Below are positions 8,975 through 41,573 of a DNA stretch of 61,944 nt, one piece after another. The DNA is from an uncultured Spirochaetaceae bacterium (GTDB taxonomy: Bacteria; Spirochaetota; Spirochaetia; DSM-27196; PWMO01). The position numbers were made by a program, and so were the translations under genes. Each line of letters opens with the position of its first letter. Position 1 is the first letter of the stretch. Location of the stretch: NCBI GenBank assembly GCA_964413635.1, contig CAYPTH010000001.1, forward strand, positions 18,249-80,192. Reading direction: 5' to 3'. A model generated the notes under the pieces. That model made no database searches. It was not told the origin of the DNA and saw nothing but the letters and a program-made list of their open reading frames with translations.

Positions 8975-10249
8975 TCACTCAGGAGCTGCGTCAGGACGCC
9001 CGGTCGGAACGGTGTCGGGAGGACTCACTGCGGAGGCACCGAGATAGTTCCGGAACCGCTCAATGGCGTGGTAGACTCCATCTATTACCGCTGTCGAGAC
9101 GGCAGGTGCGGAATCGGACGATTCACCCTCCCACCAGACCCGGTGGATCCTCCACACGCCCGCGTCGAGACGAGAATCCACTCGTCCGACAAACCGGTCG
9201 CCGCACATGATGGGCAGAACGTAGTAGCCGTAGCGCCGGTCGGCGGCGGGCTTGTAGACCTCCCAGACGTAGTCGAAGTCGTATAGGTATCGAACGGCCT
9301 CGCGGTCCCAGAGCAACGCGTCCAGCGGCGCGAGGAAGCGTACAATGGGGGCCGCTTCAACGCCGGCAGTTCCGGCGCCGACACCCGAGATGCGCGCGGC
9401 GTCGCCCTCACGCGCGCCGTCTCGGTCGTGTCCAGCGATCTGCTCTCGGGTCGCATGAAAGCGGCGGCCGTCGACATCGATCTCGATCAGGCGCCCCTCT
9501 TCGACCAGCTCCGCAATGAGCTCACGCCGCTGTCCCGAGGTAATCTTCATGCTCCACAGGTCGCCGGGCGCGTTGGGGCGGAGTAGACCGACGGACTGGT
9601 GGCGACGCAGAACGAGCCACTTGAGGTTCTCTCGCATGGGAGGATCCGGCGCCTTCAAGAGCGGCTCGGGAATGACGCGCTCCGGGAGCGCGTAGACGTG
9701 TCGTCCCTTCAACCGGTGACTGGTGACAATGCGGCCTGTGAACCAGAGCGCCTTCAGGACGTGGTTTACCAAGCGCGGACCGTACCAGGAACCCTTGCGC
9801 GCGGCCCGGTCCTCCGCACCGGGAAGCGTCAAGTCCGCAAGGTCGTCGCCGGTAACCGCACCGCGCTCGGCCACGGCGGCATTGACGATCTCTGCCGCTT
9901 CACCGTACTGCTTGAAGACGCGCTTCTCCCACGTTGCCCGGTGCCACCGGTGGTAGACCCGGCGCCACGGCCAATCCCCGACGGGGCCCACGCCCGCCTG
10001 CTTGCCCCGGGCGTCGTAGTGGCGGGGGGAGCTGGCATCCCCCGCCCCGCCGTACACCCACGCCTCCCAGTCGTCCACACGGTACCCCGGGACGCGAGCC
10101 TGGAAGACCAGATCGATGTTCCTGCCCACCGGTTTGAGGGGATCGTATTGCACGCTGCCGAGGCGTTGGAAGCACTCCGGTATGGAGCGTGGTGTGAAGT
10201 GCACCGACGCCAGGAAGGCGCGTGCCCGGGCGGTGGACCAGCTGAGCAT
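8975..10249 (-). CDS. Winged-helix YcaQ/AlkZ-like protein (DUF1006; putative DNA crosslink glycosylase family)
   Basis: The ORF 8975..10504 is trimmed to the ATG at 10249 (MLSWSTARARAFL...). Motifs LGSVQYDPL, NIDLVFQARVPGY and ...RYGYYVLPIMCGDRFVGRVD are typical of this family. Confidence 0.7.
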   Translation of the reverse strand: MLSWSTARARAFLASVHFTPRSIPECFQRLGSVQYDPLKPVGRNIDLVFQARVPGYRVDDWEAWVYGGAGDASSPRHYDARGKQAGVGPVGDWPWRRVYHRWHRATWEKRVFKQYGEAAEIVNAAVAERGAVTGDDLADLTLPGAEDRAARKGSWYGPRLVNHVLKALWFTGRIVTSHRLKGRHVYALPERVIPEPLLKAPDPPMRENLKWLVLRRHQSVGLLRPNAPGDLWSMKITSGQRRELIAELVEEGRLIEIDVDGRRFHATREQIAGHDRDGAREGDAARISGVGAGTAGVEAAPIVRFLAPLDALLWDREAVRYLYDFDYVWEVYKPAADRRYGYYVLPIMCGDRFVGRVDSRLDAGVWRIHRVWWEGESSDSAPAVSTAVIDGVYHAIERFRNYLGASAVSPPDTVPTGRPDAAPE

Positions 10250-27695: not shown

Positions 27696-29207
27696 TTACT
27701 CCTCGGGTTGATGCTTGTACTGACTCGCCTCGACGTAGCGCGCGAGCTGAATGGCGACGTTAACGAAGAGACCGGTGCTGACGAATAGACCGCCCCGGGA
27801 GATGTAGAAGTACACCGTCCCCTCCCTCGCCAGCCGATTGCTCTCGGCTTCGCCGACGCCCGGGACGGGGCCACCTTCATCCGGAAAGAGCGACAGGATG
27901 CTTTGGTAGAGACCGCCGAAGACGATCGGTACCGGCAGGGAAACCACGAATGCGCCCAGTGCGCCATAGAAGGTATCCCGCCGTTCCTCTACCAGGCCCG
28001 CCTGATCCACGACCGCCGGCACCAGACGCCGGTCGATCTGCCCCGGCGTCGCCGGGCCAACGGAACCGAAAGCATCATTGTAGCCCTCGGCGGTAATACG
28101 AAACGGGACGATCTGCGGCGGCCGCTCGATGCGAAGCGGCGTCGTTCCGCGCCACGTCGACTCCACGTAGACCGCCGCCCCCGGGGGGGTCGTACGTATG
28201 GATACTGTTCCACGCGCCGCCGTTTCCACCTCAATCGACACACTTCGGGACTCGAATCGGTCCAACTCGACGACCTGCTCCCCGGAAGCCCCCGAGGGAA
28301 GCACGACCCGGATCGCCCGGAGGCCCGGAGTGGTCCGCGAAAGCCGAGCCTCCCCAATACCAACGAACTGCCCGTCGACGTAGAGGGAGGCATCCTCGTT
28401 CGGCGAGCTCACGCTCAGACCTGCCCAGGGCCGACCGAGAGCGTATTCGACAATGCGATCACGAAGCTCCTGCGTTGCTTCAAGGGCGCGCGCCGGCCGT
28501 GTGATCACGCTATCGCTGAACACGGTCTCTTCCCGGAACCGGCCGTATACGCGCACCTCGATCTCCACGAAGCCATCCAAGTCGTGAATCACGCCCGAGA
28601 CCAGAGCGTCGAGGTCCTCTTGCTTCGACAGATGTCTGTGGTTCTGCGCCGCAGGAAGGAGACCGCCGACATCCCCTTTTACCGAGATCGCTTTCTCCGG
28701 TTTCACGTGGATCGACTGCAGCTCAATGCGCTCGACCCGCTCCAGATTCCGACGCGCCCCGAGCACCTTGTCTTCAGCCTGGGTTGTGGAGCGTGCCCCT
28801 TCCGAGCGATCACGCGCTTCGATTGCGTCGTCCAGCGCCGCTCCCGCCGCCAAGAGAGACTCCCGCTTCAGGTGGCGCCGATAGGCGGCGAGCTCTTCCT
28901 CGGAAAGCTTGTGCCTGCGAACGTCGCGTAGGTCCTCGCGAATGAGGAGGGGCACGGTTTGCGTGAGATAGCGCGCCTCCTCCGGGAGGTTTCGTCCATC
29001 GAGCTCGGCGACGCCGAGAACCCATTCCTCCCGTACGTCCACAGCTTGCAAGGACTCGGGAAGCTTCTCCTCTTCACGCTCCCCCGCTGCTACTGCGAGT
29101 GTTGCGCCGACAAGGAAGAGTGTGGCTGCGTTGTAGATGCATCGGCGCTGCTTCGGCACGACTATGCTTGGTCGCTCACGGGGCGGAGGACGAGGGGCCG
29201 ACCGCAT
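27696..29207 (-). CDS. PEGA-domain membrane protein
   Basis: Two PEGA-like units (SPNEDASLYVDGQFVG; TTPPGAAVYVESTWRGTTPLRI) and C-terminal TM helices. The ATG at 29207 overlaps the cheY-like gene by 32 nt; an in-frame GTG at 29159 is an alternative start. Confidence 0.7.
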   Translation of the reverse strand: MRSAPRPPPRERPSIVVPKQRRCIYNAATLFLVGATLAVAAGEREEEKLPESLQAVDVREEWVLGVAELDGRNLPEEARYLTQTVPLLIREDLRDVRRHKLSEEELAAYRRHLKRESLLAAGAALDDAIEARDRSEGARSTTQAEDKVLGARRNLERVERIELQSIHVKPEKAISVKGDVGGLLPAAQNHRHLSKQEDLDALVSGVIHDLDGFVEIEVRVYGRFREETVFSDSVITRPARALEATQELRDRIVEYALGRPWAGLSVSSPNEDASLYVDGQFVGIGEARLSRTTPGLRAIRVVLPSGASGEQVVELDRFESRSVSIEVETAARGTVSIRTTPPGAAVYVESTWRGTTPLRIERPPQIVPFRITAEGYNDAFGSVGPATPGQIDRRLVPAVVDQAGLVEERRDTFYGALGAFVVSLPVPIVFGGLYQSILSLFPDEGGPVPGVGEAESNRLAREGTVYFYISRGGLFVSTGLFVNVAIQLARYVEASQYKHQPEE

Positions 29208-29565
29208 CGGCCGCCTTTCCCACGGCGCTCACGATCCGTTCCTCCGCAAAAGGTTTGACAATGAAATCTCGCGCCCCGAGCAGGATCGCCCGGCGAATCA
29301 TCTCCTGCTCGCCGAGGGCGCTGCACATGACGACGCGTGCCCCCGGATCGATACGAAGGAGCCGCTCGAGGGTTTCGATACCATCCATTCCGGGCATAAC
29401 GATGTCGAGAACCACGACGTCGGGTTTCTGTTCTACGTACTGGAGAATCCCGTCGTAGCCGTCGCCGGACTCACCCATGATCTCGAAGTCATGGGCGGAG
29501 AGCGCCGACCGAATCTGGCGCCGCATCAGCGGCACATCATCTACAATCAGGACCCGTTTTCCCAT
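29176..29565 (-). CDS. Single-domain response regulator (CheY-like)
   Basis: LIVDDVPLMR, VVLDIVMPGMDG, DFIVKPF: the full phospho-acceptor set with no output domain. Confidence 0.9.
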   Translation of the reverse strand: MGKRVLIVDDVPLMRRQIRSALSAHDFEIMGESGDGYDGILQYVEQKPDVVVLDIVMPGMDGIETLERLLRIDPGARVVMCSALGEQEMIRRAILLGARDFIVKPFAEERIVSAVGKAADAVGPSSSAP

Positions 29566-29566
29566 C

Positions 29567-30686
29567 TCAGCTCGTTGACGACGCCGTATTCAAGGACCAG
29601 GTGTAGCGAAGATACTCCTCAATGAAGCGGTCAATGTCGCCGTCCATTACGGCCTGGACATTCCCCGTTTCCGCCTTCGTCCGATGGTCCTTCACCATGT
29701 TGTAGGGGTGGAATACGTAGGACCGAATCTGGTTGCCCCACGATATGTCCTTCTTCTCCGCTGCCGACTTCTCCTGTTCCTTCTCCTGCTCCCGCCGGTA
29801 GTACTCGTACAGTCGCGACTTCAGAACCTTCATTGCCGTCACCCGGTTCTTATGCTGGCTCCGCTCGTTCTGGCACTGTACGACGATCCCCGTCTCGAGG
29901 TGCGTGAGCCGAACCGCCGAGTCGGTCTTGTTGACGTGCTGACCACCGGCACCGCTCGCGCGGTAGGTATCGACACGGATATCTTCCGGCTTCACATCCA
30001 CCTCGATGTCGTCTTCAATGACCGGTGACACATATACCGAGGCGAAGGAGGTGTGCCGACGGCCTCCTGAATCGAAGGGCGAGATCCGCACCAAGCGGTG
30101 AATGCCGGACTCCGCCTTGAGGTAGCCGTGGGCGTAGGTGCCGTCAACTTGAAGCGTCACCGATTTGATGCCCCCTTCGGCCTCCTGCAGATCGAGCGTG
30201 CTGCTCTTGAACTCGTGGCGCTCGATCCAACGAGAGTACATCCGGAGGAGCATACTCACCCAATCGCAGGCCTCCGTACCGCCCGCACCGGAGTGGATCG
30301 TAAGAAAGGCGGAGTTGTTGTCGAACTCGTCGCTCAAGAGCTCCAGCACGTGCAGACGGTCGTAGCGCGCCCGCAGGCGTTCGAGACCCTTTCGGAGCTC
30401 CTCCTCCACCGACTCCTCGCCTTCCTCGAGGCCAAGCTCATAGAGCTGCCAGAGATCTTCCATCTCCTGCACCAGCTCCTGCCATGGCTCAATCCGATCA
30501 CGGAGTCGTTTTGCCTTGGACAAGGTCTTCTCGGCGTTCTCTCGATCATCCCAGAAATCCGGCGCCGCCGACTTCCCTTCCAGCTCCTCTATCTCACTGT
30601 GTAGCGATTCGACGTCAAAGACGCCTCCATGTATCGTAGATTTGGTTCTTCAACTCCTCCAAGGGAGCTCCAAGTTCTTGAAGCAT
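29567..30686 (-). CDS. prfB: Peptide chain release factor 2, expressed via a programmed +1 frameshift (complement join 29567..30616, 30618..30686)
   Basis: Frame 0 from ATG 30686 (RBS GGAGG) reads MLQELGAPLEELKNQIYDTWRRL, then TGA. The +1 frame continues DVESLHSEIEELEGKSAAPDFWDD...SKAKRL... into the 29567..30523 ORF, which carries the SPF and GGQ motifs. Confidence 0.93.
30614..30628 (-). other. RF2 autoregulatory +1 frameshift site
   Basis: The minus strand reads GGAGG-CGT-CTT-TGA-C. An SD-like element lies 3 nt before the CUU UGA C slippery/stop context, the same layout as the classical prfB site. Confidence 0.9.
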
Positions 30687-30818
30687 ATAGGCCTCCATGG
30701 TTGGTCTCTCGCAATATACTGTACATGCTGCCGGTTCCGCTACCGTCACCCGCATGTCGTCCGCTTGTGGCCCTCCACTGTAGACAGCGCTCAATGGCGC
30801 CGATTATAGTTGATAACT

Positions 30819-32117
30819 ATGGTACTCACCGGAGCGCTTCGTCACCTCCGCACTTTTCTCATGGTACTGCTCCTCACCGGCCTTCTCGGCCTCCCCGGGA
30901 TCTCGCAAGAAGCCGGCAACGGTGCTCAGCCTCCCGCGGAGGAGCAGGAAGCGATGAGCCCCTTCGTCTCCGGCCTGCGAGTCGCAATACGGGACCCCCG
31001 GGTGCGACTCACCTGGCGAGAGGAACACGACAATGTGGCGCTGCATCGCATCTATCGAGCCGGCGAGGAGATACGGGAGGAGAACTTTGACGAGGCGAAG
31101 CTCGTCGGCACCGTCGATGCCGGTACCGAAACCTTCGTGGACGTTCCCTCGGAAGAGGGAAGCTACTACTACGCCGTACTGGCCGAGACGAACGACGGTG
31201 AGCTGCGGAAGGTGTTTCTCCCCTTCCGCAATAAGACCACCCAAGCCGCCGAGATTAGCGCGGTGGCGGATCGTGTCGAGCCGCCGGCGGAGGTGATCTC
31301 CATCTCAGCCGAGCGGCGAGGGGACGAGATCCTGCTCCGCTTCCAAGCAAACCGCCCCAACCGCAATTTGGCGATCTTTCGATCAACGAAGGAGGTCGCG
31401 AGTTTGGACGACCTCGCCGTGGCAACACGGATCGACATTGTCGAAAGCGACCGACGCAGCTACACCGATTTTCCCGTACCCGGGATCTCGTATTTCTACG
31501 GAGCCTTCGATACCGAGGCCGTGGCGGAAGGAGAGATCTCCTTCGACGCCGGCCGCAACGTTTCATCCCAGCCGGTGCGAATTCCGATCGACGTGGCCAC
31601 GATGAGTCGCACGATCCCGGAAGAGCAACTGCCACGGCGGCGTCCGCTGCCCTTCCTCATGATTGACGAGACCTTGCGCGAGGGCCGAAGCCTCGCCCGC
31701 TCTCCCTTGCGGCTAACCGCTGCACGGCAGGAGTTGTCGGAAGAGACGGCATCCGCCGTTGAGGCCGCCCTCGGGCCCCTGCCGAGTCCCGCCGACCAAG
31801 CGCCGCCGAAATCCGTAATTCTCCCGGAGGAGCGCCTCACCGACCCGAAGGGACCGCGGTTCACTCTCAAGACCATCGCGGAGGGGCCCTTCGCCGCCGG
31901 ACGCTGGCAGGAGGCGGCGCGTCTTCTGGAGAACATGCTTACCATCTCGCTACCGGAAGACGTGGAGGCGCGGGTGCACTTCTATCTCGGCCAGGCGCGC
32001 TACTTCTCCGGCGACACCCGCCGCGCATTTCTGGAGTTCGTTCTGGCTCGTGAGGTGTACTTTCTCGAGACGAAGCCGTGGATCGATCGGGTTATCTTGG
32101 ATCTGAACGCATCTTGA
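30819..32117 (+). CDS. Secreted hypothetical protein with C-terminal TPR-like helices
   Basis: The ORF track starts at TTG 30810; I prefer ATG 30819 (MVLTGALRHLRTFLMVLLLTGLLGLPGISQ is a signal peptide). No catalytic motif recognised. Confidence 0.6.
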   Translation: MVLTGALRHLRTFLMVLLLTGLLGLPGISQEAGNGAQPPAEEQEAMSPFVSGLRVAIRDPRVRLTWREEHDNVALHRIYRAGEEIREENFDEAKLVGTVDAGTETFVDVPSEEGSYYYAVLAETNDGELRKVFLPFRNKTTQAAEISAVADRVEPPAEVISISAERRGDEILLRFQANRPNRNLAIFRSTKEVASLDDLAVATRIDIVESDRRSYTDFPVPGISYFYGAFDTEAVAEGEISFDAGRNVSSQPVRIPIDVATMSRTIPEEQLPRRRPLPFLMIDETLREGRSLARSPLRLTAARQELSEETASAVEAALGPLPSPADQAPPKSVILPEERLTDPKGPRFTLKTIAEGPFAAGRWQEAARLLENMLTISLPEDVEARVHFYLGQARYFSGDTRRAFLEFVLAREVYFLETKPWIDRVILDLNAS

Positions 32118-32291
32118 CGCGGCCCCGGCGGGGCAACCACATCCACCCCTCGCGCCGCGCGAGAGACCCCGCAACACCTTCCTCTTCCGGCGTAACGCAC
32201 GCTCCCTGCCGAGGGCGAGACCGCTATTCTTGTCCTGTACCGCGCAATCGTATCCGAGAATCCAAAAAGACCCTGACATGGAGGCGGAGGG

Positions 32292-34340
32292 CTAGAGGGT
32301 AGTGAGTTGAAGGGCGATCTCTACCTCGAGGCGGTCATCCGCATCCAGGGAGAGCTCCCATTGCGGCACAATGCAGGTTGCCTGGTATTCCGTGCGCAGT
32401 GTGCCGCCGGCCAAGAAGGTGGTTTCAATTGGAAATGTCCACACGCGCTCCGTGGCCGGCGCATTCACCCGTAAGCTTAGGTTGTGGACGAAATCACGGC
32501 ACACCACGGAGCTACCCCCGTCGAGGGCGACTCGGCTACAGTCAAGCTTCTCTTCCCCGCCGTCGGACTGCACGGCAAAGAAGGTTGTCAATGTCTGCTC
32601 CACCGGCGGCAGTGCGAGGTTGATCTCCGGAGCAAAGAGCCCAGCGAGCTTCGTGTCCCCGAGGTTCACAATGGCGTAGCGGACACGAAGGCCCGCTTGA
32701 TCGAAGAGATAGGTTTTGCGGATTTCGACCGGTGCCGCAACGCTGTCTTGCTGTAGCGTCCCGCGCCTTCGCAGGACCAAGCGATGGTCCTCTTTGTGCA
32801 CCGTCTCAGGCTCGTAGAGGCCGTGTACGAAATCACCGAGCTCTTCGTGACGGAGATCGACAAAGCGATCAACGGACTCGTCGCTGCGAAAGAAGTGATC
32901 AACGAAGCTGTTTCTCGGGTAGGAGTCATGGGGCTCCCCGTCCTTGTGGTAGGCCTCGGGGTGCCGAGTCATGGTGTCCTGATAGTTCCACGGCTTCGGC
33001 AGGTAGTCGAGCTCAAAGACGGCGCCGCCGACGGCGTGCACGTAGGCGTTCATCTCCTGTCCCTGAAAGAGGAACTCGTTCACTCCGTCCATGTCGAAGT
33101 CCACGGTAATGATGGATGGAATGAAGATCCCCTTCTCCCGGGTCACCTTCTCAGCCTCGATCAGTGAGGCGTAGACGCTTTTGCGAAGGTTGCTGGTATA
33201 GATGCCGCCGTTCGGAGTGTGCCAGTAGGCGTTGTGATTTTGCCCGCGCCATAACTCCTCTCGAGCCATGCGCTTGCGGTACTTGTCCCCACGAATCTGA
33301 TTCACGAGAACGTGGATGTACTGCATTTTCGAGTACAGCAGATTGCTCTCATGGTATTGCGTCAGGACGTGGCGGAAAAAGCCGCTGCCGTTGGTCCACG
33401 GCGCAGCCGCGGCTTCCACGGTGTCGACCGCTGCCTTCCCCGCTTTGCCGCGTCCATTTCCGCGGCGACTCTCGCCGGCGCGGCTGTGGACGTAGGGGTC
33501 CATCCACCGCGCAATGTGTCCATAAGGCGTCGTCGTGAAGTACCCCCGACCGTGCGGGCGGTTCGACTTCACGTAGCGGCCGGGGTGGAGCGTCTCGATC
33601 TGATCCCGGCGCTCTCTGACGAGCTCGAAGAAGCGCTGCAACCACTCGGCGTCCTCCTGGCTCCTGTCGGGATCCGCTCCGAGACGCTCTCCCTCAAACA
33701 TGAGAGAGACGACGGTGGGCTCGCCCTCCTCTCCGGCATCCACAATGCCTTGCACCAGCGACTCAGGCTTCTCCTGGAAAAGCGCCTCCGTGATCCCCGT
33801 GGAAACGGGAAACACCTCAACCGTCTTTCCCTCGTCTTCGGTAATGCAAGGCCCGTAGCGCGTCGCAGTCTCGTCGCAGCCACCGGAGGCAAACTGCACG
33901 TCATCCAAAAAGGTGTATTCGATTCCGCTGGACTTCAGGAGCGCCGGAAGTGCCGGGTCCCAGATGTGCTTGGTGATCCACGCGCCCCGGGGCCGGCGGC
34001 CGAAGTGTTTGCGGAGGTAGGTGGTCATCCGTTCGAGCTGACCGAGGCGGTCGCCTCGCGGGATGAGGGAAAAGACGGGATCGTAGAAGCCACCGCCAAG
34101 CAGCTCGACCTGTTTGCGCCCGGAAAGCTCGGCGAGGACGTCAATGAACTCGGAGTGGCGATGCTCGATCCACTGCAGGAGGTGGCCCGAGAAGTGGAGC
34201 GTGGCTCGCATGTGCGGCGCGTTGTACAACGCGCGAATGAACGGCTTGTAAGAGTTCTGGTATACGGTCTCAATGTCTTGGTCTTCGCTCCCGACAGGCT
34301 GAGAGTTCGTGGTACCAAATATGAGCCTAACTTTGGTCAT
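32292..34340 (-). CDS. GH57 family-like protein (alpha-amylase/4-alpha-glucanotransferase architecture) with non-canonical catalytic positions
   Basis: Recognisable GH57 conserved regions: SQP (aa 13-15), KQVELL (76-81), WITKHIW (121-127), MFEGERLG (214-221), NAYWH. 14-nt overlap with the rnfB stop. Confidence 0.75.
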   Translation of the reverse strand: MTKVRLIFGTTNSQPVGSEDQDIETVYQNSYKPFIRALYNAPHMRATLHFSGHLLQWIEHRHSEFIDVLAELSGRKQVELLGGGFYDPVFSLIPRGDRLGQLERMTTYLRKHFGRRPRGAWITKHIWDPALPALLKSSGIEYTFLDDVQFASGGCDETATRYGPCITEDEGKTVEVFPVSTGITEALFQEKPESLVQGIVDAGEEGEPTVVSLMFEGERLGADPDRSQEDAEWLQRFFELVRERRDQIETLHPGRYVKSNRPHGRGYFTTTPYGHIARWMDPYVHSRAGESRRGNGRGKAGKAAVDTVEAAAAPWTNGSGFFRHVLTQYHESNLLYSKMQYIHVLVNQIRGDKYRKRMAREELWRGQNHNAYWHTPNGGIYTSNLRKSVYASLIEAEKVTREKGIFIPSIITVDFDMDGVNEFLFQGQEMNAYVHAVGGAVFELDYLPKPWNYQDTMTRHPEAYHKDGEPHDSYPRNSFVDHFFRSDESVDRFVDLRHEELGDFVHGLYEPETVHKEDHRLVLRRRGTLQQDSVAAPVEIRKTYLFDQAGLRVRYAIVNLGDTKLAGLFAPEINLALPPVEQTLTTFFAVQSDGGEEKLDCSRVALDGGSSVVCRDFVHNLSLRVNAPATERVWTFPIETTFLAGGTLRTEYQATCIVPQWELSLDADDRLEVEIALQLTTL

Positions 34341-35244
34341 TCGCTTCCCGGTTGGCGGAGCGGTCGTCGGGAGACTGGTCGGAGGCCGCAGCAGCCGCAG
34401 TTTCGGATTCTACTGCCGCCGTCTCCGTTTGTAAAGCTTCGCCACGGGATTCGCCAACCTGAACAATGCACTTCGGGGGACACTTCTCGGCGCCGGCGGA
34501 TCGATCGCCGTTGTGTGAGAAATCGATGCGAGAGAGGTTATTATCGACCACATAACCTCCCTCAGGAGACTTCTTTTCGCAGATCTTGCAGGCAATGCAG
34601 CCCACTTTGCAGTACTTGCGCACGTTCTTTCCGGTATCGTGATTGTTACACGCAACAATGTAGTCCGCTGAATAGGGAACCCACTGCATGACGCCGGTGG
34701 GGCACACGTCAACGCACTTTCCGCATGAGATGCACACGTCTTTGTCGACCCAAACCTTACCCTCGCTGTCGTAGTCGATTGCATCAACCGGACAGACCTT
34801 GATACAGCTGCCGAGGCCGAGACAGCCCTCCTTGCACGCCATATTGCCACCGTAGAGTTGGTGAAGGGCGTTGCAGTCCCGGAGGCCCTGGTAATCGAAG
34901 AGCATGGTGGTAACATCGCTACCACCGCGGCAGTGGACCTGGGTCACCATCTTCTCGCTGGAAACATCGACCTCGACTCCCATGATTTGACCGAGCTTCT
35001 CGACGACGTCTGCGCCGCCGGGGCCACAGAGATCGAGGGCCTCTCCCTCCTTGGCAACCGCCTCCGCATAGGCGGCGCAGCCCGCATAGCCGCAGGCACC
35101 GCAGTTGAGCCCCGGCAAGACCTGCTCGACCTCCTCCACCTTCTCGTCCTTCTGCACGGCAAAGACGCGGGCGGCGAAGGCAAGGCCAACCCCAAAGAGC
35201 AGGCCGAGAATACCGAAAATTATGAACGCATATATGATGGTCAT
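34327..35244 (-). CDS. rnfB: Rnf electron transport complex subunit B
   Basis: N-terminal TM, LNCGACGYAGCAAYAEA cluster, and several CxxCxxCxxxCP ferredoxin motifs. Confidence 0.88.
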   Translation of the reverse strand: MTIIYAFIIFGILGLLFGVGLAFAARVFAVQKDEKVEEVEQVLPGLNCGACGYAGCAAYAEAVAKEGEALDLCGPGGADVVEKLGQIMGVEVDVSSEKMVTQVHCRGGSDVTTMLFDYQGLRDCNALHQLYGGNMACKEGCLGLGSCIKVCPVDAIDYDSEGKVWVDKDVCISCGKCVDVCPTGVMQWVPYSADYIVACNNHDTGKNVRKYCKVGCIACKICEKKSPEGGYVVDNNLSRIDFSHNGDRSAGAEKCPPKCIVQVGESRGEALQTETAAVESETAAAAASDQSPDDRSANREANDQS

Positions 35245-35268
35245 AGAGGACCTTCCTATCGAGTACGG

Positions 35269-35859
35269 TTAGCCGATCAGATTGCTCAAGAGCGCCTTGT
35301 CAAAGGCCATGAAGGCCATGGCCATGAGACCGCCGGTGATGAACGCAATCGGCGTGCCGCGGAAATGTTTCGGAACCCACTCTTTGTCGAGCTTCTCGCG
35401 AAGCGCCGACATCATGAAGAGTGCCAAGAGAAAGCCGAGACCCGCGGCAAAGCCGCCGACAAAGCTCTCGATCGGTCCGTACTCGTTCCGGACCGAGATG
35501 AGCGCAATGCCGAGAATGGCGCAGTTGGTCGTGATGAGGGGCAGGTAGATCCCGAGCGCCTTGTAAAGGGGCGGAGAAACCTTTTGTATCACCATCTCAA
35601 CCAGCTGAACCAGTCCCGCGATCACCAGAATGAAGGTTACCGTTTGGAGAAAGACGATGCCGAAGGGCACCAGAAGCAGCTCATAAATCGCCCAGGTTAC
35701 CAGGGAGGCAATAGACATGACGAAGGTGACGGCGAAGCCCATTCCCACGGCCGACTCGACGTTCTTCGAGACGCCGATGAAGGGACAGAGGCCCAAGAAC
35801 TGGGTGAGGATGAAATTGTTTATGAAAACGAAGGTGATGATGATTCCTACGTAGGTCAT
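35269..35859 (-). CDS. rnfA: Rnf electron transport complex subunit A
   Basis: Trimmed to the ATG at 35859 (RBS AGGAG). FLGLCPFIGVSK..., YLPLITTNCAILG: near-identical layout to E. coli RnfA. Confidence 0.9.
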   Translation of the reverse strand: MTYVGIIITFVFINNFILTQFLGLCPFIGVSKNVESAVGMGFAVTFVMSIASLVTWAIYELLLVPFGIVFLQTVTFILVIAGLVQLVEMVIQKVSPPLYKALGIYLPLITTNCAILGIALISVRNEYGPIESFVGGFAAGLGFLLALFMMSALREKLDKEWVPKHFRGTPIAFITGGLMAMAFMAFDKALLSNLIG

Positions 35860-35869
35860 GCTCTGCTCC

Positions 35870-36520
35870 TTAGGCCGCAGCCTGGCCCTCATCGGCCTTC
35901 GCCGCTCGTTTGGCCCGCCGCTCCTCGGCCCAATTGAATAGCGCCTTGAGATACCCGACCACCAACAGCGCTCCCGCCGCAAGGGCCATAATGCGCACCG
36001 GCGACTCGGAGAGGATCGGCAGCCGGATGGTGCCACCGAAGTTGCCGATGGCAATCAAGGTAATGGTGCCGGCTCCCAAGACCTCGCGCACGAGGGCGAT
36101 CGCCGTGAGTCCGAGGGTGAATCCGATACCCATGCCCAGTGCGTCCATGACGGAGCTACTCAAGGTGCTCCGGCTCGCGAAGGCTTCCGCCCGGCCCAGG
36201 ATCATGCAGTTCACGACGATCAGCTGCACGAACACCCCGAGACTCGCCGAAAGGCTCGGTGCGTAGGCTTGCATGGTGAGATCCACAATGGTGACGAAGC
36301 TCGCAATGATCACAATGTAGGAGGGTATGCGCACCTTCTTCGGAATGAAGTCCTTCAAGAGCGAAACCATGATATTCGACCCGAGAAGCACGAAAATGAC
36401 CCCCGCCCCCATTCCGAGGGCGTTTACAACCTGTGTGGAAACGGCGAGGGCGGGACAGAGGCCAAGTGCCATTACGAATATCGGGTTCTCTTTGAACAAA
36501 CCCTTTGTAAACTCTTTCAT
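35870..36520 (-). CDS. rnfE: Rnf electron transport complex subunit E
   Basis: ALGLCPALAVST..., LIVVNCMILGRAEAFAS. Confidence 0.9.
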   Translation of the reverse strand: MKEFTKGLFKENPIFVMALGLCPALAVSTQVVNALGMGAGVIFVLLGSNIMVSLLKDFIPKKVRIPSYIVIIASFVTIVDLTMQAYAPSLSASLGVFVQLIVVNCMILGRAEAFASRSTLSSSVMDALGMGIGFTLGLTAIALVREVLGAGTITLIAIGNFGGTIRLPILSESPVRIMALAAGALLVVGYLKALFNWAEERRAKRAAKADEGQAAA

Positions 36521-37065
36521 TCCAAAGCCTCCGAGTTTTCCAGGAAGTCCGATCCGGCCGCCAAGGCTTCACCAATACTGATGAAGGTGATTGTTGCGCC
36601 GGAAACGCTGTCGGCCTGTTCGGGAGGGAGCTGGTCGGGCCGTGTCGGGATCGGTTCCTCGTCGCCATGGCCGGTGTACTTCTCCATGTAGCCCGGTTCC
36701 TCGGCCTGCTTGCCCAGCCCCGGGGTCTCGTTGTTCCGCATGAGTCGCGCAGCAAAGACTTCACCGTCCGAGCGATACCCGGCGAGAATCCGCATGTCCC
36801 CGCCGTAGCCGGAGCCAATCAAATCGAGGACGTATGAGTCGCTCCCGGAGATGGGATAGTAGCCCTGCACCACCGGGTGGTCGTCGACGTTGCGCCGTTC
36901 CCCGACGGACTGATCTCCAACAATCTCGGAGAGGGTCCGGTTGAGCCGCTCAATGCGATTCTGCTCAATCACCGGCGCGGTCACTGCGTTCACCAGGGCA
37001 AGAATCAAGGCCGCGACCGTGCAGATGAGGGCCAGCTTTCCGCCGATTGCGAGTAAGCGTTGCAT
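36517..37065 (-). CDS. rnfG: Rnf electron transport complex subunit G (FMN-binding)
   Basis: N-terminal TM and the covalent-FMN motif DSVSGATIT. Confidence 0.85.
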   Translation of the reverse strand: MQRLLAIGGKLALICTVAALILALVNAVTAPVIEQNRIERLNRTLSEIVGDQSVGERRNVDDHPVVQGYYPISGSDSYVLDLIGSGYGGDMRILAGYRSDGEVFAARLMRNNETPGLGKQAEEPGYMEKYTGHGDEEPIPTRPDQLPPEQADSVSGATITFISIGEALAAGSDFLENSEALE

Positions 37066-38207
37066 CAGCTCTCCTGCCTGCTTCCCGTACCGTAGATGGT
37101 CGGCTTGACGTAGCGATCAATGATGGGCGCGGCAATGTTCATGAGCAGAATGGCCAGGGACACACCCTCCGGAAAGGAACCGTAGAAGCGGATCAGGAAG
37201 GTGAGCACGCCGGCACCGGCACCGTAGATGAGCATCCCCTTCGTCGTCATAGGCGAGGTAACCATGTCGGTGGCCATGAAGAAGATGCCGAGCATGAAAC
37301 CGCCGGCCAGAATGTGAAAGAGAACGTCGCCGGTAAAGAACCCGGTACCATAGACGCGTCCCCCAAAGATCCAGGTGAGAACGGCGAAGCTCAGGAAGTA
37401 GGAGGCCGGAATCTCCCAGGTGATGATCCGCTTGGCAAAGAGGTACACAGCGCCGACCATCAGCAGCAGCGCCGAAACCTCGCCGATGCAGCCGGGAATG
37501 TTGCCAAGCAGTGGATCGATGTATCCACCGGGCAGCGTAATCCCCAGCCCCTCGAGGACGTTCTCATTGAGCCAGCTCGTGACATTCCCGTCGGTAACGC
37601 TGCGCGGGTAGTTGATCCGTTGCAGATATGCGGCCGGCCGGCCGATGTCGCCGCCACTCGAAACAACGCCGGACTTCAGCGCGCCGAGGAGAGTTGCTCC
37701 CGAGGTGCCGTCCGCTACAGGAAGCGTGAAGGGCATCTTCCAGCTCGTCATCTCCCCCGTCCAAGAGAAGAAGACGAAGACACGCCCCGCCAAGGCTGGG
37801 TTCATCCAGTTATTGCCCAAGCCGCCAAAGGTCCACTTCACGACGCCAATGGCAAAGATGCTCGCCACAATGGGAACGTGAAAGGGAATCTCCGGGGGCA
37901 TGTTCATTCCGATGAGAATACCGGTGAGCACCGCGCTCCCGTCGAAGAGCGTCCGGCGGCTCATGGCGCGTGCGATGATCCACTCCGTCGCGACCGAGGC
38001 GAGGACGGACACAAGCAACACGGCAAGGGCGTACCATCCGAAGACGTACACTCCCCACGCGGATGCGGGAAGCAGACACGCAGTGACCGACCACATGATC
38101 CGGGGCGTCGATGCCTGATCGTGAAACTGGGGAGAGCTCGTTATCTCGAGGCGCTGCTCCACTTCTTCTCGGGGCAGCCGTGACACCTTGCTTGCTCGTT
38201 CACTCAC
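37065..38207 (-). CDS. rnfD: Rnf electron transport complex subunit D
   Basis: GTG start at 38207 forms a GTGA overlap with the rnfC stop. Polytopic protein with the motif DGTSGATLLG. Confidence 0.85.
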   Translation of the reverse strand: MSERASKVSRLPREEVEQRLEITSSPQFHDQASTPRIMWSVTACLLPASAWGVYVFGWYALAVLLVSVLASVATEWIIARAMSRRTLFDGSAVLTGILIGMNMPPEIPFHVPIVASIFAIGVVKWTFGGLGNNWMNPALAGRVFVFFSWTGEMTSWKMPFTLPVADGTSGATLLGALKSGVVSSGGDIGRPAAYLQRINYPRSVTDGNVTSWLNENVLEGLGITLPGGYIDPLLGNIPGCIGEVSALLLMVGAVYLFAKRIITWEIPASYFLSFAVLTWIFGGRVYGTGFFTGDVLFHILAGGFMLGIFFMATDMVTSPMTTKGMLIYGAGAGVLTFLIRFYGSFPEGVSLAILLMNIAAPIIDRYVKPTIYGTGSRQES

Positions 38208-39535
38208 GGTTTGACCTTCTTCTTTCGCGCCAGTCGTTTGCCGATTCGGATGCCTTGAACCAGGGGAATGTGAGCGGGGCAGATGTAGCTGCAGGCACCG
38301 CATTCAATACAGTCGTTGACGCCCAGATTCACCGCCTCCTTATACTCCTCGTGCTCAATGAGCTTGTACAGGAGCGTCGGCGTGAGGCCGGCAGGACAGG
38401 AGCGAACGCAGCGGCCGCAGTTGATGCACGGCGTTTGCGGCGCCTCGTTCACCTCTCGAGCGGTGAGAGCCAGAATGCCGGAGCTGCCCTTCGTGATCGG
38501 CGTGTCCATGTCGTACACGGCGAAGCCGGTCATGGGACCACCGGCAACGATCTTCTTCGGAACCTCGCGGAAGCCTCCGGCTTCTTCGAAGAGCTCACCA
38601 ATGCTAGTGCCGATGCGCACCTTGAAATTCGCCGGCCGCCGAACGGCGCCGCCGGAGACGGTAACGACCCGCTCGAGGAGGGGCTTATCGTGGACGACCG
38701 CCTCATGTATGGCGTGAAGCGTACCCGTATTAGAGACAATTACACCAATGTCGATCGGCAATCCGCCGGAGGGGACCTCCCGCCCGGTGATCGTCTCGAT
38801 GAGCTGCTTCTCACCCCCTTGGGGATACTTCTCCTCGAGAGCGATCACATCGATATCGAGATTCAAGGCACGGATGCGCTTCTTGAACTGGTCGATCGCA
38901 TCGGGTTTGTTGTCCTCAATGCCGATTGAGACCGAATCCGCGCCCAGGATCTTGCGGGCAATCTGAAGTCCCTCGAGGACTCCATCGGTCATCTCCATCA
39001 TCAGACGATGATCGGCTGAGAGGTACGGCTCGCACTCGGTCCCGTTGGCAATGAGATACTCCGCCTTCTTGCCCTTGGGGACACTGTACTTCACGTGGGT
39101 GGGGAAGGTAGCTCCGCCCATGCCGACGATCCCCTTGTCCTTGAGGATCTCGATAAGCTCCGCCGCCGATTTGTCGCTCCACTCCCGCCGCTCGCTCACC
39201 TTGCCGAGGCGGTCAAACTCGCCGGCGAGCTCAATGACGACGGCCTCACTCTGAATACCGTTGGGAAGGAAGATGTTTTTGATCTCCTTCACGGTACCGG
39301 GAATGGGTGCGTGTATGTTCGCGCTCACGAAGCCTGACGCAGCACCGATGAGCATCCCTTCGCGCACCTCGTCGCCCTGCGAGACCAGGGATTCGGCCGG
39401 CGCTCCAATGTGCTGTCGTAGTGGTACAATGCATTCCGAGGGAATAACGGCGTTCCAGATCTCCTGTGATCGCGTTTCTTCCTTGCGATCAAAGGGATGA
39501 ACTCCCCCTCGGGAGAAGGTCTTTGCGAAGATCAT
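38204..39535 (-). CDS. rnfC: Rnf electron transport complex subunit C
   Basis: GMGGATFPTHVK, SNTGTL, and two 4Fe-4S motifs (CINCGRCVRSCP, CIECGACSYICP). Confidence 0.9.
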   Translation of the reverse strand: MIFAKTFSRGGVHPFDRKEETRSQEIWNAVIPSECIVPLRQHIGAPAESLVSQGDEVREGMLIGAASGFVSANIHAPIPGTVKEIKNIFLPNGIQSEAVVIELAGEFDRLGKVSERREWSDKSAAELIEILKDKGIVGMGGATFPTHVKYSVPKGKKAEYLIANGTECEPYLSADHRLMMEMTDGVLEGLQIARKILGADSVSIGIEDNKPDAIDQFKKRIRALNLDIDVIALEEKYPQGGEKQLIETITGREVPSGGLPIDIGVIVSNTGTLHAIHEAVVHDKPLLERVVTVSGGAVRRPANFKVRIGTSIGELFEEAGGFREVPKKIVAGGPMTGFAVYDMDTPITKGSSGILALTAREVNEAPQTPCINCGRCVRSCPAGLTPTLLYKLIEHEEYKEAVNLGVNDCIECGACSYICPAHIPLVQGIRIGKRLARKKKVKP

Positions 39536-41085
39536 GCTCCCTGCCTTTGCGCCCGAAGGGCGACGTAGCTCACACCTTGCATAGCTCGCGGTCGCAAATA
39601 CCCTCGCGAAACGAGAAAGGGCATCAGGACAAGAAAAAGAAGTGCGCTATTCTGAATAAGATGTGACAGCGATGAGTATAAACCGGGATTAGAACGCATC
39701 TCAACCCCTACCGGACCGCCGTGCTTCACGAAAAGCGACGCCACATTGCTCGCCTCGACGTCTTGTACAAGGTCGGCCAGCCACTCCTCGTCGAAAGAGA
39801 GGACCACGCGATCACGTCGCGTGAGTTCCCCCGCCACCGTGTCGTAGGTCGAGAGAGACAAGGTCTCTGCGGTACGCGGCAGACCGTACTCTCGGCCGTA
39901 CATCATGCCCTCGTGGAAAGCCCTGTGGGCTACGTAGTCGGCGAGAGTTGGAGCTCGGCCACCCCGCGACCACACCTCTTCGAGGGTGGTAAAACTCACA
40001 CCGGCGCTTCCGGTGCCGAGGGGTTGGGGAATCGCCGGGGTGCCGTGAATCCCGCCGAGAAAGCCGAGCAGAATTGCCACGAGGCTGAAGCCCGTAAGCG
40101 CCAGGGAAGCGCGCCCGGCGACGCGACGGTTCCCCCCTACACCCGTCCGGCGGATCGGCACGGGAATGAAGAGACGGTGATCTGCTCCATTTGTGCGCAC
40201 ATAGGTCCACAGAAGAGCCGCCGCACCGACAATTGCCGTCACGACGGAAGCGCCCAGGAGAATCCAGAGTTGCTGAGGTCTCTCCACTGCGAACAGCGTT
40301 GCTCCAAGCACAACCCAACCGGCCATGAAGAGCGCGGTAATTCGCCTGCCGGAGGAGTAGTCATCGACCTGATGATAGAAGCCGGTGTAATGAAGGCGCT
40401 CCAGTGCCCCCGACAGCCAGAGGGCGAAACTGAAGAGTGTACCGACGGCAAGCAAGAATCCCGTCGCGCCACCCGCCAAGACAAAACACGTCCACGCCGG
40501 TGCCGCGAGAGCGGTGAAGAGGCGTACCCGCCGGAGCTTTGTCCCGAGATAGATCGCCGCTGCAAGGAAGAGGACGATGAAGACCGCGTTGCGCCCCACG
40601 CGCCATTCCACCATGCTCCATTGATCGGTCACGCCGGCGAGGGCGGCACGCGCTGCTCGGTGGCTGGGGAACACACCACGTTCCGTCGGTAGGTAGTAGA
40701 CGCCGTAGGCCGTGTTTCCGTCGGTCACGTGGAAAAGAGCGCTGATACGTCGCAAATAGGGATCGTAACGCGGGTCGAGCTGATCGAGTCGCTCACCGAG
40801 TTGACTCACGCGTACCCGGTCCATGCCGTCGTAGGCCTGTATTTGGACCGTGGCCGAGACCTCGGAGAGCACGTCCGTGAACCCCTCGGCCCGGAGCGCA
40901 TCAACCACTCGGGTGGGCGCAACGCTGCTCGAAACCAGAAGGGTGTAGTGGCCGTTCCACGCGGTGTCGATACCGGTGCGCACCGAGAGTACAGCGGTAA
41001 GCGCAAGAGCGGAGATGAACAGGATCAGGCAGAGGGCGAGAAGCGCCATCGCTTTCGTCCGTGGTTCGAATCGCATCCTTCTCAT
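39532..41085 (-). CDS. Polytopic membrane protein of unknown function, translationally coupled to rnfC
   Basis: 517 aa: an N-terminal TM, a ~150-aa extracytoplasmic domain, about 6 central TMs, a ~150-aa soluble domain and a final TM. 4-nt overlap with the rnfC start. Confidence 0.65.
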   Translation of the reverse strand: MRRMRFEPRTKAMALLALCLILFISALALTAVLSVRTGIDTAWNGHYTLLVSSSVAPTRVVDALRAEGFTDVLSEVSATVQIQAYDGMDRVRVSQLGERLDQLDPRYDPYLRRISALFHVTDGNTAYGVYYLPTERGVFPSHRAARAALAGVTDQWSMVEWRVGRNAVFIVLFLAAAIYLGTKLRRVRLFTALAAPAWTCFVLAGGATGFLLAVGTLFSFALWLSGALERLHYTGFYHQVDDYSSGRRITALFMAGWVVLGATLFAVERPQQLWILLGASVVTAIVGAAALLWTYVRTNGADHRLFIPVPIRRTGVGGNRRVAGRASLALTGFSLVAILLGFLGGIHGTPAIPQPLGTGSAGVSFTTLEEVWSRGGRAPTLADYVAHRAFHEGMMYGREYGLPRTAETLSLSTYDTVAGELTRRDRVVLSFDEEWLADLVQDVEASNVASLFVKHGGPVGVEMRSNPGLYSSLSHLIQNSALLFLVLMPFLVSRGYLRPRAMQGVSYVALRAQRQGA

Positions 41086-41093
41086 TCTCGGCG

Positions 41094-41573
41094 TCAGAGT
41101 AGACTGAAGGCCGTCGCGATGAAGAATCCCAGCAGCACTCCCACGGATACCTCGCTGGGAGTGTGGCCGTGCACTTCTTGTACCGGGGTGAAATCGATGT
41201 TGTAGCTCCGTTTGAGCTCGGTTCCGAGCCGATTGAGCTCCCTCGCCTGCATCCCCGCCGCGCGCCGTACACCCAGCGCGTCACGGATTACCAACATGCC
41301 GTAAAAGAGCGAGAGCGTGAATAGCGGATTGTTCACACCGCGGGAGAACGCGATGGCCGTCGCAATCGACGTGACGAGAGCGGAATGACTGGAGGGCATT
41401 CCACCAGTTCGCCACATGAGGCCGATGGCAACGTCCCGCGACACCTGTGAGCGGTTACGGAGCGCCTCAATGATCAGCTTCAAGAGCTGCGCCATGAACC
41501 AGCTAAAGAAGGCCGAGAGGAAGACGGTGCTGGTGAGGAACTGGTACATCTGACCCGCGGTGGGAGGCGCCAT
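41094..41573 (-). CDS. Divergent PAP2 family protein (DUF212, acid phosphatase/vanadium-haloperoxidase-related)
   Basis: GGMPSSHSALVTS..., IVIRDALGVRR..., GHTPSEV: the family signature as I recall it. Confidence 0.75.
   Translation of the reverse strand: MAPPTAGQMYQFLTSTVFLSAFFSWFMAQLLKLIIEALRNRSQVSRDVAIGLMWRTGGMPSSHSALVTSIATAIAFSRGVNNPLFTLSLFYGMLVIRDALGVRRAAGMQARELNRLGTELKRSYNIDFTPVQEVHGHTPSEVSVGVLLGFFIATAFSLL

Follow-up and report, generated by a model that had tools for sequence, protein, structure and literature searches.

A GH57 4-alpha-glucanotransferase-like protein with a replaced catalytic dyad is encoded at the end of an extended rnf operon in Spirochaetota

In many anaerobes, energy conservation centres on the Rnf ion pump, a complex regarded as having a fixed number of six subunits. 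Here we describe an rnf operon of an uncultured Spirochaetaceae bacterium that continues, on the same strand, into a gene of a very different family. The DNA analysed (assembly GCA_964413635.1, contig CAYPTH010000001.1, positions 18,249 to 80,192; 61,944 nucleotides, hereafter the window) carries the gene string DUF212 - M517 - rnfCDGEAB - GH57-like (Table 1). The product of the last gene is a homologue of the 4-alpha-glucanotransferases (4AGTs) of glycoside hydrolase family 57 (GH57), and both of its canonical catalytic positions are substituted. We combined alignment and structure prediction of this protein with a survey of gene order and column conservation across Spirochaetota to examine what a glycosidase homologue might do behind an ion pump.

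An rnf operon with a GH57-like last gene

The string is compact. Within it, the rnfB stop codon (TAG, 34329-34327) is contained in the 5'-terminal 14 nt of the GH57-like gene, whose ATG is preceded at 4 nt by a Shine-Dalgarno-like GGGAAG. This overlap, already read by the original prediction, is not a matter of chance, because an identical overlap of 14 nt occurs in 11 related loci. A promoter and terminator scan of positions 29000-41500 gave site counts at the level of shuffled sequence; it contained a plausible -35/-10 site 5' of rnfC (39704-39675) and no terminator between rnfB and the GH57-like gene. The C-terminus of RnfB (34327-34430, minus strand) is acidic, Ala-rich and probably disordered (…TAAVESETAAAAASDQSPDDRSANREANDQS), and its last codons overlap the GH57-like start.

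Table 1. Features of the extended rnf operon in the window. TLGT, Thermococcus litoralis 4-alpha-glucanotransferase; ORF, open reading frame; AF2, AlphaFold2; TM, transmembrane segment.
Feature	Position	Strand	Basis or remark
GH57 4-alpha-glucanotransferase-like (4AGT-like) protein, 682 aa, last gene of the operon	32292..34340	-	ORF, Pfam, 1K1W alignment, AF2/Foldseek
Lys124 codon AAG, nucleophile position (Glu123 of TLGT, WLTERV)	33969..33971	-	1K1W alignment
Glu216 codon GAG, acid/base position (Asp214 of TLGT, HDDGEKFG)	33693..33695	-	1K1W alignment
Thr11-Asn12-Ser13 codons, in place of region-1 His-x-His (HNHQP)	34302..34310	-	1K1W alignment, column comparison
RPRG motif, residues 116-119, loop ahead of strand beta4	33984..33995	-	near-invariant in the rnf-linked clade only
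RGDK motif, residues 350-353, enlarged loop of helical subdomain	33282..33293	-	clade-specific, near-invariant; gap in TLGT
rnfB stop/GH57-like ATG overlap, 14 nt	34327..34340	-	rnfB TAG at 34329-34327
rnfB, N-terminal TM, Fe-S domains, acidic Ala-rich tail	34327..35244	-	PF04060, Fer4, TIGR01944
rnfA, listed ORF over-extended 5'; Rnf-Nqr domain from residue 69	35269..36054	-	TIGR01943, 256 bits
rnfE	35870..36520	-	TIGR01948 / NF009070
rnfG (FMN_bind)	36517..37065	-	PF04205; TIGR01947 below its cut-off
rnfD	37065..38303	-	TIGR01946, 290 bits
rnfC, within the RnfC clade linked to GH57-like genes	38204..39535	-	TIGR01945, 549 bits
M517, 517-aa polytopic membrane protein, without Pfam family	39532..41085	-	stop overlaps rnfC start; conserved head gene
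DUF212 (divergent PAP2) membrane protein, at the 5' end of the string	41094..41573	-	PF02681, 2.4e-40

The GH57-like reading frame is uninterrupted, and its product matches three Pfam families, PF03065 (GH57, 1.6e-32), PF09094 (AmyA/4AGT middle domain) and PF09095 (C-terminal beta-sandwich), but no NCBIfam model. A phmmer search of the sequences in the Protein Data Bank (PDB) returned a single match, TLGT (1K1W, 2.5e-70). The AF2 model, computed from 29 homologues, is confident (predicted local distance difference test, pLDDT, 86.9; predicted template modelling score, pTM, 0.87), and Foldseek superposes it over its full length on 1K1X (TM-score 0.83/0.89, E 1e-58), with other GH57 structures ranking lower. 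Profile match and modelled fold, in this family a (beta/alpha)7-barrel with a helical bundle after it, both place the protein in GH57. Residues 291-319 form a disordered insert in the model. The protein is predicted to be cytoplasmic, with neither a transmembrane segment nor a signal peptide nor any other hydrophobic segment, and it has no conserved Cys cluster. Across 29 homologues of 41-72% identity, 96 columns are invariant; together with the intact reading frame and the confident fold, this shows that the gene is not a pseudogene. The 120 closest database homologues belong to Spirochaetota wherever a source is named, share the architecture of the window protein and are labelled 'alpha-amylase/4-alpha-glucanotransferase'.

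All five conserved regions of GH57 are present in canonical order and spacing relative to TLGT (SQP 13-15, KQVELL 76-81, WITKHIW 121-127, MFEGERLG 214-221, NAYWH 370-374), with substitutions in regions 1, 3, 4 and 5. The HMMER alignment has a one-residue gap immediately ahead of the pairing of Glu216 with Asp214. The original prediction had placed these motifs by eye, assigned Lys124 and Glu216 to the catalytic dyad and described the spacing as matching almost residue for residue; translation of the reading frame reproduced every motif and codon position, and the 1K1W alignment and the fold of the model agree with the assignment. An active 4AGT (EC 2.4.1.25) requires a Glu nucleophile on strand beta4 and an Asp acid/base on strand beta7, neither of which the window protein has. 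No adjacent carboxylate can stand in as nucleophile, because Lys124 is flanked by Thr123 and His125. The His-x-His of region 1 and the Trp of the region-4 extension (GEKFGVW) are also absent, replaced by Thr11, Ser13 and Asp223, where 14/14 canonical spirochaetal homologues have His, His and Trp. A role for Lys124 as a Schiff-base catalytic residue was rejected, as the nearest orthologues carry Gln or Glu there, and the missing region-5 Asp of TLGT was dropped as an argument, since canonical spirochaetal 4AGTs have Cys in that column.

Linkage to a distinct Rnf lineage

We examined the loci of 80 of the nearest relatives, taken from species-representative genomes, and 30 loci from a 201-genome sample of the phylum, in which Rnf subunits were located by tblastn and by profile hidden Markov models (HMMs) made from the loci; the genomes are a sample, and relatives among them are not independent. 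In 84 Spirochaetota homologues, including about 70 of the 80 nearest loci, the GH57-like gene immediately follows the final rnf gene, in the same orientation. Ahead of it stands rnfCDGEAB, rnfCDGEA, rnfCDEA or a more divergent cluster. The linkage extends across the class and holds for all Treponema-type family members in the sample. It is also found in a 1.14-Mb genome whose GH57-like protein bears the signature of Treponema pallidum TP0147 (locus L106). In this genome the string begins with DUF212, continues with RnfC-like, RnfD-like and three small membrane protein genes, and ends in a GH57-like gene that overlaps its upstream neighbour. Its DUF212 gene (9122-9613, minus strand) sits just 5' of the RnfC-like gene, the position of tp0153, and Pfam recognised no RnfB-like or RnfG-like reading frame in the string.

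Junctions between rnf and the GH57-like gene are short. Among 83 that could be measured, 21 overlap (11 of them by 14 nt), 12 are spaced by 0-30 nt and 43 by 31-150 nt, so that 76/83 do not exceed 150 nt. An operon position, as expected of an Rnf accessory subunit, is documented by gene order and overlaps in the 84 loci and by the T. pallidum literature, in which tp0147-tp0153 were reported to be co-transcribed (reverse-transcription PCR, data not shown there; Deka et al. 2015, mBio, PMC4436053). Overlap and linkage together support the co-expression with Rnf proposed by the original prediction. A lack of rnf linkage in related genomes, which that prediction had named as a refuting outcome, was not what the survey showed.

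The homologues with an intact H-x-H/E/D set (DDGEKFG) come from other classes of the phylum, and 14/14 are encoded away from rnf. They form one clade in an unrooted maximum-likelihood tree (SH-aLRT 100). On the GH57 tree, the rnf-linkage label changes 5 times, compared with 22.7 times when labels are shuffled; this tree and the RnfC tree below are quick maximum-likelihood searches with long branches and no outgroup.

The linked clusters also differ from other spirochaetal rnf clusters in their head genes. DUF212 and M517 genes stand 5' of rnfC in nearly all linked loci, and an HMM search detected M517 in Treponema-type loci too. By comparison, 0/16 plain spirochaetal rnf clusters contained a GH57-like, M517 or DUF212 gene. 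Twelve of these came from families without a GH57-like gene. The remaining four were from genomes with a GH57 homologue: G015 and G030, each contributing its second rnf cluster, and G165 and G011, in which the intact 4AGT gene is located away from the rnf cluster. A single branch of the RnfC tree (SH-aLRT 100) separates 71 linked from 16 plain sequences. G015 (Treponema-type; L112, L125) and G030 (Spirochaeta thermophila-type; L126, 531-534 kb) each hold two rnf clusters, one plain rnf(B)CDGEA and one divergent and headed by DUF212, and the GH57-like family is tied to the divergent one only. Since G015 has RnfC sequences on both sides of the split, paralogy and not species phylogeny alone must underlie it. 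DUF212 by itself was rejected as a specific marker of the module, as it occurs in 60/201 genomes of the phylum, including families without a GH57-like gene.

The predicted layout of M517 comprises a first transmembrane helix, an alpha/beta domain (46-158), four to five transmembrane helices, a second alpha/beta domain (352-464) and a C-terminal transmembrane helix, with D104, R106, D108, F118, H303, H387 and W435 invariant. Its AF2 model (pLDDT 81.7) gave weak, RND/AcrB-like Foldseek matches (E ~5e-4, TM-score ~0.2). Three small genomes of the same class (G124, G173 and G190, family f5, 1.0-1.5 Mb) have DUF212 and an RnfC-like match that is weak (E ~1e-25), and lack a GH57-like gene; this set may represent what is left of the cluster after further reduction.

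On its 3' side the GH57-like gene converges with a gene for a 435-aa protein (30810-32117, plus strand) that has a signal-like N-terminal hydrophobic segment, a weak C-terminal TPR match and no Pfam family. This gene is the immediate 3' neighbour in 70 fetched loci, including six in which the GH57-like gene is not linked to rnf (L046, L056, L063, L070, L084 and L085). Two minus-strand reading frames (31950-32279 and 31496-31945) were rejected as additional operon genes, being shadows of this conserved plus-strand gene. Beyond it lies a prfB reading frame (29567-30523, minus strand), listed at 318 aa and matching the RF2 profile from position 48 on, which fits the programmed +1 frameshift that is usual near the 5' end of this gene.

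Relaxed active site and gained motifs

We compared alignment columns between the 14 canonical homologues and the rnf-linked set, with the 72 nearest and the 12 Treponema-type sequences tabulated separately. The nucleophile column, Glu in 14/14 canonical homologues, is occupied in the 84 linked ones by E50, Q11, G8, K3, R3 and A3, with Ser, Tyr and others in the remainder. The acid/base column, Asp in 14/14, holds E25, D20, P13, S8, N7, R4 and others. No linked homologue retains the complete set of His11, His13, Glu and Asp (0/84), and Glu and Asp alone are kept in 15/84. The 120 closest homologues behave similarly (nucleophile column E87, Q14, G8, R4, K2, A2; acid/base column D45, E28, S12, P12 and others), and in almost all of them the region-1 His is replaced by Ser or Thr. 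Within the linked clade, position 124 is more variable than 48% of all columns and position 216 more variable than 66%. Dyad columns that vary as much as the median column or more, together with a Lys/Glu dyad, support the original view of a probably non-hydrolytic protein. Positions that are invariant in canonical homologues and relaxed in the linked set span the entire active site: H11, H13, N18-D20, E124, R125, the 183-189 loop, D215, D216, K219, W223, P224, T226 and region 5. The loss of His11 and His13 and of the wider active site is clade-wide and not peculiar to the window gene, whose Lys/Glu pairing is a rare variant (Lys at the nucleophile column in 3/84).

Other positions have become nearly invariant in the linked clade, where conservation of the RPRG and RGDK motifs reaches 94-100%. 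In RPRG, R116 is conserved in 82/84 and R118 in 83/84 linked homologues, and neither is conserved in canonical ones. In the RGDK region the figures are 79/84 for R350, 82/84 for G351, 84/84 for D352, 82/84 for K353 and 83/84 for K356, and the motif is absent from canonical homologues and from TLGT. The full series of gained positions includes E103, T106, R110, R116 and R118 (…FGxRPRG), D169, G171 and K172, then Y336, K338, M339, N347, Q348, R350, G351, D352, K353 and K356 (LVNQIRGDKYRK, in a loop enlarged relative to TLGT), and finally a group of positions where the C-terminal domain begins. Both motifs survive even where degeneration is greatest, as in the T. pallidum type (IKGDKQRK, KRPRG), and also in lineages whose rnf linkage was lost. 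Two linked homologues (L055 and L076) retain WVTERVW and DDGEKFG or DNGEKFG and already possess both motifs. These intermediates suggest that recruitment preceded catalytic decay, where the direction from canonical to degenerate is drawn from knowledge of the family, the GH57 tree being unrooted.

A proposed role beside the pump and comparison with known systems

The conserved position as last gene of an rnf operon points to a non-enzymatic job tied to the membrane pump. We hypothesize, and consider this slightly better than an even chance, that the GH57-like protein is a non-catalytic accessory partner of a spirochaete-specific Rnf-type cluster, which it would bind through the new basic motifs. 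A catalytically dead descendant of a GH57 4AGT would have been recruited to the cluster DUF212 - M517 - rnfCDGEAB - GH57-like and would be expressed from the rnf transcript, its translation in the window genome being coupled to that of rnfB through the stop/start overlap. In the linked clade the -1 subsite and the catalytic dyad are free to drift, the fold has been kept along with many framework residues, and constraint has shifted to the basic motifs RPRG 116-119, K172, RGDK 350-353 and K356. On the cytoplasmic side, these motifs may together make up a surface that binds a partner; the complex subunits RnfB, RnfC and M517 are candidates, as are ferredoxin and flavodoxin as acidic electron carriers. 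A more ambitious version, possible but doubtful in our estimate, makes the protein a stoichiometric cytoplasmic subunit of a spirochaete Rnf supercomplex that includes DUF212 and M517, the basic surface docking ferredoxin or flavodoxin or anchoring RnfB or RnfC.

Several observations weigh against an accessory role. In the S. thermophila-type genome the DUF212-headed rnf cluster lies at 531-534 kb and the GH57-like gene 820 kb away, and one clade has either DUF212, M517 and the GH57-like gene together or the GH57-like gene alone, with rnfC elsewhere in the genome. In L046 (8057-12091) and L070 (8486-12082) the three genes are adjacent with no intervening rnf and rnfC lies elsewhere; DUF212, M517 and the GH57-like gene may form a unit of their own. 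With two lineages lacking adjacency, the linkage is therefore strong and not obligatory. Many Spirochaetota have Rnf without a GH57-like protein, which is therefore not needed for Rnf as such, and none of the 120 closest homologues is fused to an Rnf subunit. The 435-aa gene is an equally conserved neighbour, which shows that the closer relatives generally share much of their local gene order. Finally, Glu216 is a conservative change, and the window protein may have residual activity.

Part of this evidence would fit an inherited neighbourhood, in which the gene landed behind rnf in a Spirochaetia ancestor and is co-transcribed with it, and does an unrelated job. Two lineages parted the gene from rnf and still kept it, the unrelated convergent 435-aa gene has been an equally stable neighbour, and in most bacteria Rnf works without any GH57-like protein. 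We nonetheless consider this explanation unlikely. Adjacency has outlasted the remodelling of the rnf cluster itself (CDGEAB, CDGEA, CDEA, CD..., and the very divergent Treponema type), stop/start overlaps recur, the gene is kept beside rnf-like genes even in the reduced 1.14-Mb genome, and catalytic loss and motif gain coincide with the linked clade.

Two further rivals were weighed. As a carbohydrate-binding sensor or regulator, the protein would still bind alpha-glucan or maltooligosaccharide in the old cleft and adjust Rnf activity, or a co-regulated task of its own, in line with carbon or storage status. In favour of this, the protein retains its C-terminal beta-sandwich domain and, in the Spirochaetaceae type, part of the cleft framework (E79 84/84, W127 83/84, W121 75/84, E218 66/84, W373 73/84). 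Genes for glgA, a phosphorylase-like protein and a second GH57 protein, the last a probable branching enzyme, are present in the window's genome. However, the -1 subsite is relaxed throughout (H11, H13, the dyad, W223 and the 183-189 loop), and Treponema-type proteins lack the aromatic framework (FLEASA, AEQGVFFIS), yet keep RGDK and RPRG. The T. pallidum-type genome has neither glgA nor glycogen phosphorylase and retains the gene at the end of its rnf-like string, which makes the gene independent of glycogen; a sensor accordingly seems improbable to us. Still less credible, and in our view very improbable, is an enzyme with an altered mechanism or substrate, for example one that uses Glu216 or Glu218 with another nucleophile, or acts on a non-glucan substrate. 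In its favour, Glu216 supplies a carboxylate at the acid/base site, both E79 and E218 are conserved, and the AF2 model has an intact fold and cleft. Against it, the nucleophile column admits E, Q, G, K, R, A, S, Y and others and the acid/base column E, D, P, S, N and R, the closest relatives have Gln at 124 and one of them Arg at 216, and the clade-specific invariant sites include no alternative invariant acidic pair near the cleft.

If the accessory-partner hypothesis is correct, a seventh operon-encoded protein derived from a dead glycosidase, together with two membrane proteins, would define a distinct spirochaetal type of Rnf. A noncanonical Rnf is thought to power Treponema, the uncultivable syphilis agent included. 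This complex is poorly understood, and the hypothesis would offer a handle on it through TP0147, the product of the operon's last gene. The supercomplex version, if true, would amount to the exaptation of a glycosidase fold into a respiratory or ion-pumping machine and would explain the noncanonical Rnf of Treponema. The intermediates that combine motifs, rnf linkage and dyad make the family a case for studying pseudoenzyme evolution, and 4AGT-like proteins should not be counted as starch-active enzymes when spirochaete genomes are annotated.

Compared with TLGT (PDB 1K1W/1K1X/1K1Y), the window protein shares the full-length fold and five equally spaced conserved regions. It differs at H11, H13, E123, D214 and W221 of TLGT, where it has T, S, K, E and D, and in its enlarged RGDK loop, a gap in TLGT, and the disordered 291-319 insert. 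The window encodes the six core subunits of the canonical Rnf (rnfCDGEAB or rnfABCDGE; clostridia, Acetobacterium, Azotobacter and Rsx of Escherichia coli), which match the NCBIfam and Pfam models. We know of no GH57-like, DUF212 or M517-type component described for canonical Rnf complexes.

The substitutions by themselves are not new, because the 4AGT-like group has already been published. Martinovicova & Janecek 2018 (3 Biotech 8:307, PMC6037648) listed 63 '4-alpha-glucanotransferase-like' proteins, all bacterial and nearly all spirochaetal, defined by one or both catalytic residues missing; their table includes O83182 (TP0147) of T. pallidum, Q73MW1 of T. denticola, E0RTG0 of S. thermophila and H9UHZ7 of S. 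africana. The conserved-region strings of O83182, Q73MW1 and E0RTG0 recur exactly or nearly in L106, in L093 and L112, and in L084 and L085, respectively. The window protein belongs to the same group: it has the three-domain 4AGT architecture, the size (~620-680 aa) and the incomplete dyad of its members, with both dyad positions replaced, and shares a tree with the loci of listed members. That paper is a sequence catalogue without genomic context, Rnf, RPRG or RGDK, which the present work adds. Searches of the accessible full-text literature found nothing tying the 4AGT-like group to Rnf. Against that literature, what appears to be new is the conserved place in a distinct, extended Rnf cluster, along with the move of constraint onto other motifs.

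The closest known counterpart of the operon is tp0147-tp0153 of T. pallidum. Deka et al. (PMC4436053) described tp0153-tp0148 as a 'noncanonical Rnf', tentatively an rnfBCDGEA set, and gave TP0147 no role. The T. pallidum-type genome has the same gene string, with the GH57-like gene last and overlapping, but its counterpart of tp0153 is a DUF212 gene and not RnfB. Unlike tp0147-tp0153, the window cluster combines the GH57-like last gene with fully canonical rnfCDGEAB subunits.

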